From: a virus
Lineage: Duplodnaviria; Heunggongvirae; Uroviricota; Caudoviricetes
Direction: 5' to 3' (one strand)
IMG/VR virus record: IMGVR_UViG_2734482785_000014
Location: 1 to 12,688 of that record
DNA: 12,688 nucleotides
The stretch's first letter is position 1; the number at the start of each line of letters is the position of its first letter. Below the pieces are notes generated by a model. It made no database searches. It saw only the letters and a program-made list of their open reading frames with translations, and was not told where the DNA came from. Positions 829-1,448 of the stretch are shown here, piece after piece. A program made the translations under genes and the position numbers.

Positions 829-1019
829 CCTTGCGAACAATTAACCTACTGCGCAAAAAATGAATATAAGCAGTGGAATTATATCAGACAGGTGACGAAG
901 CGCCACTATTGCCGGATAACAGGCAAAACAAAGGCGACCGCAAAAGGGTAGCCAGTGGGAACAAGGGAAAACAAAAGCATCACCAACAATGCCACATTTG
1001 CGGCTGGTGGGCAATGTGA

Positions 1020-1193
1020 TCAGTCAGATTTGGTTCGTTCCAAGGTTTGCAACGAGAGCTTTTTCCTGCGCTCTTTAAGGAATTTCTCAAGAGCAAACGA
1101 ACAAGGTGCGAATCTTTCTGATTCATGCTCTATCTTTCTGCGCCGTCTTTTCCGTGTCGGTGATAATGTTTTGGTCAATTCTTTATCGGTCAT
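1020..1193 (-). CDS. Hypothetical small, highly basic protein (57 aa from internal ATG; 62 aa if started at 1208)
   Basis: Minus-strand ORF MTDKELTKTLSPTRKRRRRKIEHESERF..., lying 42 nt downstream of the RHH-like gene. AGGA sits 7 nt before the ATG at 1193-1191, whereas the ATG at 1208 has no ribosome-binding site. No recognisable family; the overlapping + strand ORF 955-2268 has a non-protein-like composition here. Confidence 0.45.
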   Translation of the reverse strand: MTDKELTKTLSPTRKRRRRKIEHESERFAPCSFALEKFLKERRKKLSLQTLERTKSD

Positions 1194-1250
1194 TGTGTTG
1201 TCCTGCATAGCAATGCGCCGTAGTTACTCACACCACGGCGCTGATAGTGA

Positions 1251-1448
1251 TTATTCTGATTCTTTGGCCTTCCGGCGCTGTTCATATTTTAATTTGCGTC
1301 CACAGGCATCTAAGACCCATGCGGAAAAATTAGCACTAGGATTAGTTAATTTTTCTTGTTCAACGCTGGCATCAATCCCATCTATAAGCTCATGTGGGAA
1401 TCGAATATTTTTCTTTGCTGATTTGTTGTTTGTGTTACCGCTAGACAT
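1251..1448 (-). CDS. Ribbon-helix-helix (Arc/MetJ/CopG-like) DNA-binding protein, candidate repressor (65 aa)
   Basis: MSSGNTNNKSAKKNIRFPHELIDGIDASVEQEKL... has a basic N-terminus, a beta-strand-like KNIRFP and two short helices, as in RHH proteins. A strong ribosome-binding site (GTGAGGTG) lies 7 nt upstream on the minus strand, and the gene is transcribed divergently from the palindromic operator region. Confidence 0.6.
   Translation of the reverse strand: MSSGNTNNKSAKKNIRFPHELIDGIDASVEQEKLTNPSANFSAWVLDACGRKLKYEQRRKAKESE

Follow-up and report, generated by a model that had tools for sequence, protein, structure and literature searches.

A probable ribbon-helix-helix repressor operon lying antisense to a conserved open frame in a phage-inducible chromosomal island

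Mnt and Arc are ribbon-helix-helix (RHH) repressors of the immI region of phage P22. In phage P1 the immI region consists of c4 RNA, icd, and ant, and Gifsy-1 has isrK-anrP. N of phage lambda and Nun of HK022 are arginine-rich-motif proteins, and Nun is made by a silent resident element. For P4, Forti and colleagues reportedly found in 1999 that translating the open reading frame (ORF) eta allows transcription from the late promoter upstream to pass the immunity terminator. PMC10111431 describes kil as the end of eta, a longer ORF whose start lies upstream of the immunity promoter and within which the CI RNA is encoded. Here we analyzed 12,688 nt of a virus (Caudoviricetes; IMG/VR record IMGVR_UViG_2734482785_000014, positions 1 to 12,688), hereafter the window, and in it the AT-rich segment 906-1448, which encodes on the leftward (minus) strand a 65-aa RHH protein and contains a small basic ORF. 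Judged from sequence, the whole combines a divergent RHH repressor like Mnt of P22 with an immunity region like eta/kil of P4.

The explanation that we favor, with a probability of roughly 0.55, is that the segment belongs to the leftward maintenance operon of a capsid-forming phage satellite island, encoding a repressor and a basic protein, which lies antisense in a rightward frame kept open by selection. The operon, its predicted control region, and the opposing frame comprise the following features:

1251..1448, minus strand: probable RHH repressor gene, 65 aa, DUF3950 / YlcI-YnfO family, type A allele (family models, predicted fold)
1215..1241, minus strand: intercistronic hairpin between the RHH gene and the small ORF, with a 10-bp stem, a 7-nt loop, and no U-run (-19.4 kcal/mol, z -3.6)
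1020..1193, minus strand: 57-aa basic ORF (MTDKELTKTLSPTRKRRRRKIEHESERFAPCSFALEKFLKERRKKLSLQTLERTKSD) (ORF list, homologue alignment, conservation)
1476..1485: predicted operator O1 (TGGGCGCACA, one mismatch), over the likely start point of the leftward promoter (sequence, comparison)
1485..1513, minus strand: leftward promoter, TTAACA, 17-nt spacer, TATTGT (consensus scan; position kept in related loci)
1517..1544, plus strand: rightward promoter, TTGACA, 16-nt spacer, TTTAAT (picked by eye from the sequence; the scanner did not report it)
1523..1532: predicted operator O2 (TGTGCGCACA), directly after the rightward TTGACA -35 box (sequence, comparison)
1546..1555: predicted operator O3 (TGTGCGCACA), over the start point of the rightward promoter (sequence, comparison)
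952..2268, plus strand: stop-free frame of 438 codons, open over 952-2265 (ORF list, comparative stop depletion)

According to the favored explanation, the promoter at 1485-1513 would drive the RHH repressor, a stable hairpin, and the 57-aa protein, and the transcript would then meet up to three terminators. A repressor dimer would bind three 10-bp palindromes that overlap the back-to-back promoters. Bound to O1-O3, it would silence the rightward operon (Icd/Kil-like genes, C4 RNA, and primase) and limit its own synthesis. The 57-aa gene would be a probable addition in the Escherichia lineage, its product synthesized along with the repressor in the silent island. Translation of the long frame would let transcription from the integrase-AlpA side read through, overriding both the repressor operon and the RNA immunity, by analogy with P4.

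Like Mnt and Arc of P22, the 65-aa protein is a small RHH protein encoded divergently from the operon that it would silence, with palindromic operators over back-to-back promoters. It differs from them in family (DUF3950/YlcI-YnfO here, with Arc matching only below threshold), in having three operators of the form TGT-N4-ACA, and in that the operon it would silence has Icd/Kil-like genes, C4 RNA, and primase and not an antirepressor. Moreover, the repressor gene here overlaps an antisense open frame. With eta/kil of P4 the window shares a long ORF that runs from upstream of the immunity promoter to a Kil-like unit, with a C4/CI-type RNA inside. However, the upstream part of the frame in the window is antisense to a protein-repressor operon, which P4 does not have. 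The window also has two Icd/Kil-like units, and many related loci lack C4 or isrK. Finally, C4, its a1/b1 targets, and isrK in a rightward operon beside an Icd-like gene are shared with P1 immI and the isrK-anrP locus of Gifsy-1, but here a protein repressor is added to the RNA immunity.

The 65-aa protein scored 28.3 against Pfam PF13132 (DUF3950; cut-off 25) and 59 against NCBIfam NF041551 (YlcI_YnfO_N; cut-off 30), and the name given by the Prokaryotic Genome Annotation Pipeline (PGAP) agrees. AlphaFold, run with an alignment of 36 homologues, predicted for the monomer an extended stretch followed by two helices, in keeping with the short N-terminal strand and two helices in about 45 residues that mark RHH proteins. 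These profile and structure searches bore out the RHH-like protein of the earlier note, and on the models the protein has the RHH fold and is a member of DUF3950/YlcI-YnfO. Foldseek and PDB sequence searches with it were uninformative. Every match of the family to curated RHH sequence models was below threshold, the best E-values being 0.0021 for HicB_lk_antitox, 0.0092 for Arc, 0.026 for NikA-like, 0.13 for CopG_antitoxin, and 0.24 for RHH_1; the similarity to HicB_lk_antitox was seen in 9/36 family members. The type C allele of locus L002 matches the PHROG family "Arc-like repressor" at 1.5e-6. Our literature search found no paper that assigns a function to YlcI/YnfO, and the global repressor of Gram-negative phage-inducible chromosomal islands (PICIs) was called "unclear" in the foundational experimental study (PMC6092414).

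For comparison, we gathered 31 loci from other Enterobacterales genera and nine from E. coli. Operator covariation and stop counts were scored in 38 loci, and the E. coli-type survey of the long frame covered eleven loci. O1-O3 are the sole three operator matches in 12.7 kb, and they cluster within 80 nt, whereas 0.77 matches were expected window-wide. The layout is constant across the 38 loci. Starting from the Icd-like gene, it consists of the Icd-like start, a leader hairpin, O3, and O2 abutting the TTGACA box, followed by the leftward -10 box, O1, the Shine-Dalgarno (SD) sequence, and the repressor ATG. O1 is at -37 relative to the RHH ATG in all type A loci, the spacing of the operator region is conserved inside the type A group, and the GTCAA adjoining O2 is kept in most of the 38 loci.

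The outer TGT...ACA of the operators is invariant, and the central bases vary with repressor residues 8-14, which precede the IRFP strand. KSAKKNIRF pairs with TGTGCGCACA in 4/4 loci, RSTTKG[IV]RF with TGCAnATACA in 9/9 loci, and KSxYKGIRF with TGTTTAAACA in all three loci scored. Shorter type B alleles pair with GTGTTGAACAC or GTGAAATACA, and the Arc-like type C allele pairs with GGTAATTACC. Position and covariation thus point, indirectly, to the binding of repeated palindromic operators through the N-terminal strand that is typical of RHH proteins, and the pattern is what an RHH repressor with immunity types would look like. Because the operator core varies with the residues preceding the RHH beta-strand, the 65-aa protein is very probably the operator-binding repressor of the island.

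Two further observations concern the neighborhood of the repressor gene. The leader hairpin of the rightward transcript (1584-1617, plus strand, z -3.2) is kept from Escherichia to Xenorhabdus and Serratia, and both of its arms differ between genera in an apparently compensatory way. In two loci of other genera (L038 and L039, from Xenorhabdus and Morganella), a 113-aa protein with a CxCx..CxH motif replaces the small basic ORF after the repressor gene; it lies at about 2723-3070, 34-40 nt downstream of the repressor stop.

The earlier note described a self-contained leftward module. That picture was incomplete, because the module lies antisense in a conserved rightward open frame; the 438-codon frame, the operators at 1476-1555, the intercistronic hairpin, the Chi sites, and two weaker terminator-like hairpins (T0 and T1, below) did not figure in it. 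The frame is closed upstream by a TAG at 949-951. Its first part is antisense to the small ORF, the hairpin, and the RHH gene and crosses the operator region; further on it includes, in frame, the following units:

1654-1857, plus strand: Icd-like unit (family match)
1837-1913, plus strand: isrK (Rfam, 80 bits)
1935-2022, plus strand: C4 RNA (Rfam, 75.3 bits)
2078-2268, plus strand: second Icd/Kil-like unit (family match)

All 11 E. coli-type loci keep the frame open over both leftward genes, with lengths of 245-805 codons, as do most of the loci from other genera. In locus L043, in which the module is present twice, an 805-codon antisense frame is open across both tandem copies. Antisense to the repressor gene, the frame has 0.28 stops per 100 codons, compared with 4.8 and 6.4 in the other two frames, and over 200 nt of non-coding operator DNA it has 1.83 stops per 100 codons, compared with 8.6 and 6.3. 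This operator DNA is free of stops in 26/38 loci (0/38 and 3/38 for the other frames), and the repressor gene and operator DNA combined are free of stops in 25/38 loci (0/38 for each other frame). In ten control genes of the window, the same antisense frame has 2.98 stops per 100 codons and the other frames 2.39 and 3.5. The depletion is about tenfold and recurs with at least fifteen different operator types, so a single accident of descent does not account for it. From these comparisons it is highly likely that the plus frame is kept open by selection while its amino acids are free to vary.

Eight of the nine E. coli loci have the opening of the frame either overlapping the stop of the upstream AlpA, BRO, or Ant gene or no more than about 40 nt away from it. 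In E. coli 042, which does not have the TAG at 949-951, it is open from 775. The product of P4 8171-8584 matched that of window 1654-2268 by BLASTP with an E-value of 1e-5. This likeness came from direct comparison; tblastn of the Icd-like units against the phage collection gave no match. By analogy, we give about even odds that the long frame works as in P4, with eta-like read-through.

The long frame also bears on existing annotation. PGAP calls it an "Icd-like protein" (310 aa) or pseudogenes (L002 3807-4400, L005 2120-3052, L001 14085-14556), and where it is called, the true leftward repressor and small ORF are often omitted. Pfam Phage_ASH and the PGAP "ash family protein" are translations of C4/CI RNA DNA (window 1935-2022; L003 2987-3367; P4, L125, 8168-8584), and this "protein family" may largely reflect RNA conservation inside the eta-like frame.

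The second part of the operon is the small ORF. A longer form of 62 aa (1020..1208, minus strand) would start at an upstream ATG at 1208, which reads CTG in loci L007, L009, and L010. The alignment of 32 homologues begins at the Met of the ATG at 1193, which is preceded by an AGGA SD sequence. Because the upstream ATG is not conserved, the true start is the ATG at 1193, and the protein has 57 aa. With 18 K/R and 9 D/E its net charge is about +9. AlphaFold2 predicted a disordered Arg-rich N-terminus and one helix (residues 29-61 in 62-aa numbering) with a predicted local distance difference test (pLDDT) score of 80-92. The protein has an invariant 20-residue core, E-x-E-x-E-R-F-A-P-C-x-F-A-L-E-x-F-L-K-E.

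Searches of Pfam, NCBIfam, PADLOC, and PDB sequences gave no match to the small protein, and tblastn against phage records gave nothing informative. Its sole family match was PHROG 21027, which has no assigned function. Thus, the 57-62-aa very basic ORF of the earlier note is present, in its 57-aa form, and the description of it as having no recognizable family holds except for this match. A profile search of 1.8 billion proteins (representatives) found only nine clusters at 50% identity and one spurious eukaryotic repeat protein. The family comprises 43 protein clusters, every one from Escherichia or Shigella. The DNA block 1002-1254 is present in 1,817 of 5,426 complete E. coli genomes (77-99% identity), with its flanks replaced, and the ORF is intact in 91/91 loci (11/11 from genomes and 80/80 from metagenomes). 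It follows four repressor types (A, 65 aa; B, 59 aa; long B, 101 aa; Arc-like C, 57 aa), and which of three C-terminal variants it has does not depend on the RHH type. After the type A repressors of the 31 loci of other genera it is absent, and the repressor there has no conserved partner.

In locus L043 (3001-4143) the module occurs twice in tandem in one island. A lone homologue of the small ORF stands beside the Icd promoter with no RHH gene upstream; next comes a type B repressor of the long form, which has a small ORF of its own. Another minus-strand ORF, in a different frame (980-1126, MNQKDSHLVRLLLRNSLKS...), is open in every related locus, with 48-108 aa. We considered it as a gene, and with a ratio of nonsynonymous to synonymous polymorphism (pN/pS) of 0.85 it is probably non-coding. 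Database proteins P0004, P0019, P0020, P0038, and P0164 are frameshift fusions of this ORF with the small ORF.

To separate the strands, every substitution was classed by its effect on each of them, with the repressor gene as the control. In the control, minus-only-silent changes occurred at 2.12 per opportunity, compared with 2.01 for doubly silent changes and 0.57 for plus-only-silent changes; therefore, the plus frame is without amino-acid constraint. In the core of the small ORF there were 7 minus-only-silent changes per 9.3 opportunities and 3 plus-only-silent changes per 15 (one-sided p about 0.04). The core substitutions also obey the minus-strand code: Pro is encoded by all four of its codons, and Arg codons swap between AGA and CGA and between AGG and CGG. 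We take the small ORF to be, quite probably, a real gene with a short constrained core, as judged from sequence comparison.

Several points weigh against the explanation of a repressor operon within a selected frame, and part of them would fit a small ORF that is non-coding. In such a case its conservation would come from the open plus frame, from RNA structure in the leftward transcript, or from the Chi site and the terminators next to it. The third codon positions of the small ORF fall on those of the opposing plus frame, so that ORF integrity, in-frame indels, and pN/pS (0.46 against 0.58) cannot separate the strands. A codon model does not favor the small ORF, with -0.19 to +0.03 per codon in the minus frame and equal or better values in the plus frame. 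The strand test in the core rests on only 10 informative changes; neither of the variable ends, N- or C-terminal, shows the asymmetry, and the test across the entire ORF gives a p of 0.21. With respect to the long frame, 11/38 loci have stops in it, and in the window itself three in-frame stops (721-723, 772-774, and 949-951) separate it from the upstream BRO-N gene, so that the read-through device may be defective here. With respect to the repressor, AlpA was found to be the required activator of Gram-negative PICIs (PMC6092414).

A non-coding small ORF would also agree with the 49 distinct residues that the core has in each of the two frames, with the shadow ORFs of 50-100 codons found downstream of the RHH gene in other genera, and with the fact that PGAP leaves the ORF unannotated in E. 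coli 042. On the other hand, the plus frame is unconstrained antisense to the RHH gene, yet the ORF block is far more conserved than the operator region in the same frame. The intact ORF in all 91 loci, the minus-strand code of the core changes, the ATG kept in 12/12 aligned sequences, the purine-rich SD-like stretch in nine E. coli loci, and the confidently predicted helix also argue for a gene, and we regard a non-coding ORF as unlikely.

The composition of the small protein, with an R/K run and one predicted amphipathic helix, suggests that it binds nucleic acid and also makes a protein contact, and the fact that it would be expressed from the repressor promoter hints at a role while the island is silent. 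Like lambda N and HK022 Nun, it is a small basic protein with an N-terminal Arg run. The likeness ends there: it has no sequence homology to either protein and is half their size. No boxB-like target was found; the sole hairpin nearby, the intercistronic one with its 10-bp stem and 7-nt loop, does not resemble boxB. Since this hairpin occurs only once, we rejected the idea of an N-type protein that works on repeated nut-like hairpins. We likewise rejected a Rom-like helper of C4 antisense pairing: six of the eleven E. coli-type loci with the small ORF have neither C4 nor isrK.

Lxc/Bof is a small protein that aids the C1 repressor of phage P1. By this model, the small protein could be a co-repressor that joins the RHH protein on the operators or on nearby DNA and tunes repression, which corresponds to the repressor plus co-factor proposed in the earlier note. 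It is basic, is encoded in the same operon, and nearly always comes immediately downstream of the RHH gene. However, much the same small protein comes after four RHH alleles that are unrelated to one another and have unrelated operators, the C-terminal variants are not tied to RHH type, same-type RHH genes with the same operator layout have no such partner in the 31 loci of other genera, and one copy in L043 has no RHH gene upstream. Thus, the repressor half of that proposal is retained and the co-factor half is not; a co-repressor now appears quite improbable. Since the small protein does not co-vary with the repressor type, its target may be something other than the repressor. Tentatively, it could work in trans as an accessory or interference factor, with a target in the host, a helper phage, or the island, although we put this at less than even odds. 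The anti-phage or helper-interference factor of the earlier note was neither supported nor contradicted by these results.

An atypical toxin-antitoxin system had also been proposed, and in a type II system the RHH protein would serve as antitoxin and repress its own operon, and the small basic protein would be the toxin. The gene order, with RHH first and the small protein second, would suit it, as would the sub-threshold likeness to RHH antitoxins noted above (HicB_lk_antitox). Furthermore, type II RHH antitoxins (TacA, CopG-type, VapB, and the HicB C-terminus) have the same DNA-binding fold as that predicted for the 65-aa protein. In contrast to them, the 65-aa gene has no conserved toxin partner, is not inherited as part of a pair in the 31 loci of other genera, and is predicted to regulate a neighboring operon, with operators that would govern the divergent replication operon besides the RHH promoter. 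The small protein, predicted as a tail and a single helix, matches no toxin family, defense model, or PDB entry, and the partner alleles are freely shuffled. A toxin-antitoxin system is therefore very unlikely.

A wider reading joins these elements: DUF3950/YlcI-YnfO as the master repressor of Gram-negative islands, its antisense overlap with an eta-like frame, an Arg-rich, Nun-like protein in Escherichia that would block a helper or competitor phage, and an override driven by AlpA through collision and antisense. On induction, rightward transcription would meet the repressor operon head-on, and collision and antisense pairing would silence the operon. The induced transcription, AlpA-driven and coupled to translation, would bypass the operators as well as the C4 RNA immunity. 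We consider this joint reading doubtful as a whole.

The region downstream of the small ORF, up to the end of the leftward transcript, contains these features:

1003..1010, plus strand: Chi site (GCTGGTGG) just 3' of the small-ORF stop (kept in every E. coli locus)
968..1016, minus strand: terminator-like hairpin T0 with a U-run (-16 kcal/mol, z -1.9)
924..953, minus strand: terminator T1, GGCGACC..GGTCGCC followed by TTTGTTTTG (comparison; z -1.7 for the window version)
795..832, minus strand: strong terminator T2, hairpin and U-run at 832..805 (-20.4 kcal/mol, z -3.5)

The T0 hairpin is conserved, and its U-run is present only in the window and L007. The T1 stem is perfect in E. coli 042 and L007 and has a compensatory pair in L004/L005. 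In L007 and L009 a convergent upstream gene comes directly after T1. The block bearing T2 is found in only about 12% of matching genomes. The terminator assigned to the segment by the earlier note is a real hairpin, at 832..805, but it lies outside the segment, which begins at 906; the distance of about 190 nt from the stop at 1020 to this hairpin agrees. The 3' region had been called unexplained. It can now be read as a mosaic of terminators and Chi sites, and it is neither a hidden gene nor a known RNA; an Rfam search of the region found nothing. At window position 950 a private C-to-A change relative to E. coli 042 breaks the T1 stem and creates the TAG in the long plus frame. Most of the nine E. 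coli loci are predicted to have a hairpin like the intercistronic one, irrespective of RHH type. The window has this hairpin in a single copy, and one possible role is to balance the amounts of the two products.

The plus-strand Chi (CATTGCCCACCAGCC) comes directly after the small-ORF stop in every E. coli locus. In total, the window has 13 copies of Chi (GCTGGTGG) in 12.7 kb (9 on the plus strand and 4 on the minus strand), or about one per kb, compared with 0.46 expected from shuffles. They are at 689-696 (minus), 788-795 (plus), and 1003-1010 (plus), with ten more across the window. An extended inverted Chi pair (TACCCACCAGCA / TGCTGGTGGGTA) is present at 686-697 and 787-798. Our literature search found no paper on Chi enrichment in these islands.

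The segment is AT-rich, as first noticed, with 43.8% GC compared with 51.5% for the whole window. Only 2.5% of 543-nt windows have GC this low and nearly all of them overlap 906-1448, which makes it the most AT-rich stretch of that size. The closest genome to the window is E. coli 042, with 99.8% identity over window positions 700-1700. Its island encodes, in order, an integrase, two helix-turn-helix regulators, BRO-N, the segment, an Icd-like protein, DUF4222, a DUF927 primase, and SSB, followed by PerC, capsid, protease, portal, connector, HNH, TerS, and TerL. Downstream of the first Icd-like unit its arrangement differs from that of the window. The island splits the large-terminase gene of a lambdoid prophage, with the halves at L001 10340-11368 and 26599-27342. 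A helper-embedded, capsid-forming type of PICI has been described by Tommasini et al. 2023 (PMC10111431), and by gene content and order the island of E. coli 042 is of this type. In the scheme of that paper (PMC10111431), the segment is part of the "dynamic zone", which separates the integration zone from the replication zone.

The long frame explains a recurrent misannotation, in which "Icd-like" proteins or pseudogenes are called over real leftward genes. About one in three complete E. coli genomes encodes the 57-aa protein, which matches no characterized family. An antisense frame that is kept free of stops is a rare example of selection acting on both strands of one DNA; this one suggests that the P4 trick of translating through immunity is general and compatible with a protein repressor. 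If the model is true, a resident repressor would be reconciled with AlpA as the essential activator (PMC6092414). An allele-specific repressor found from Escherichia to Xenorhabdus and Gilliamella would then be the missing half of the AlpA switch and would define the immunity types of these islands.

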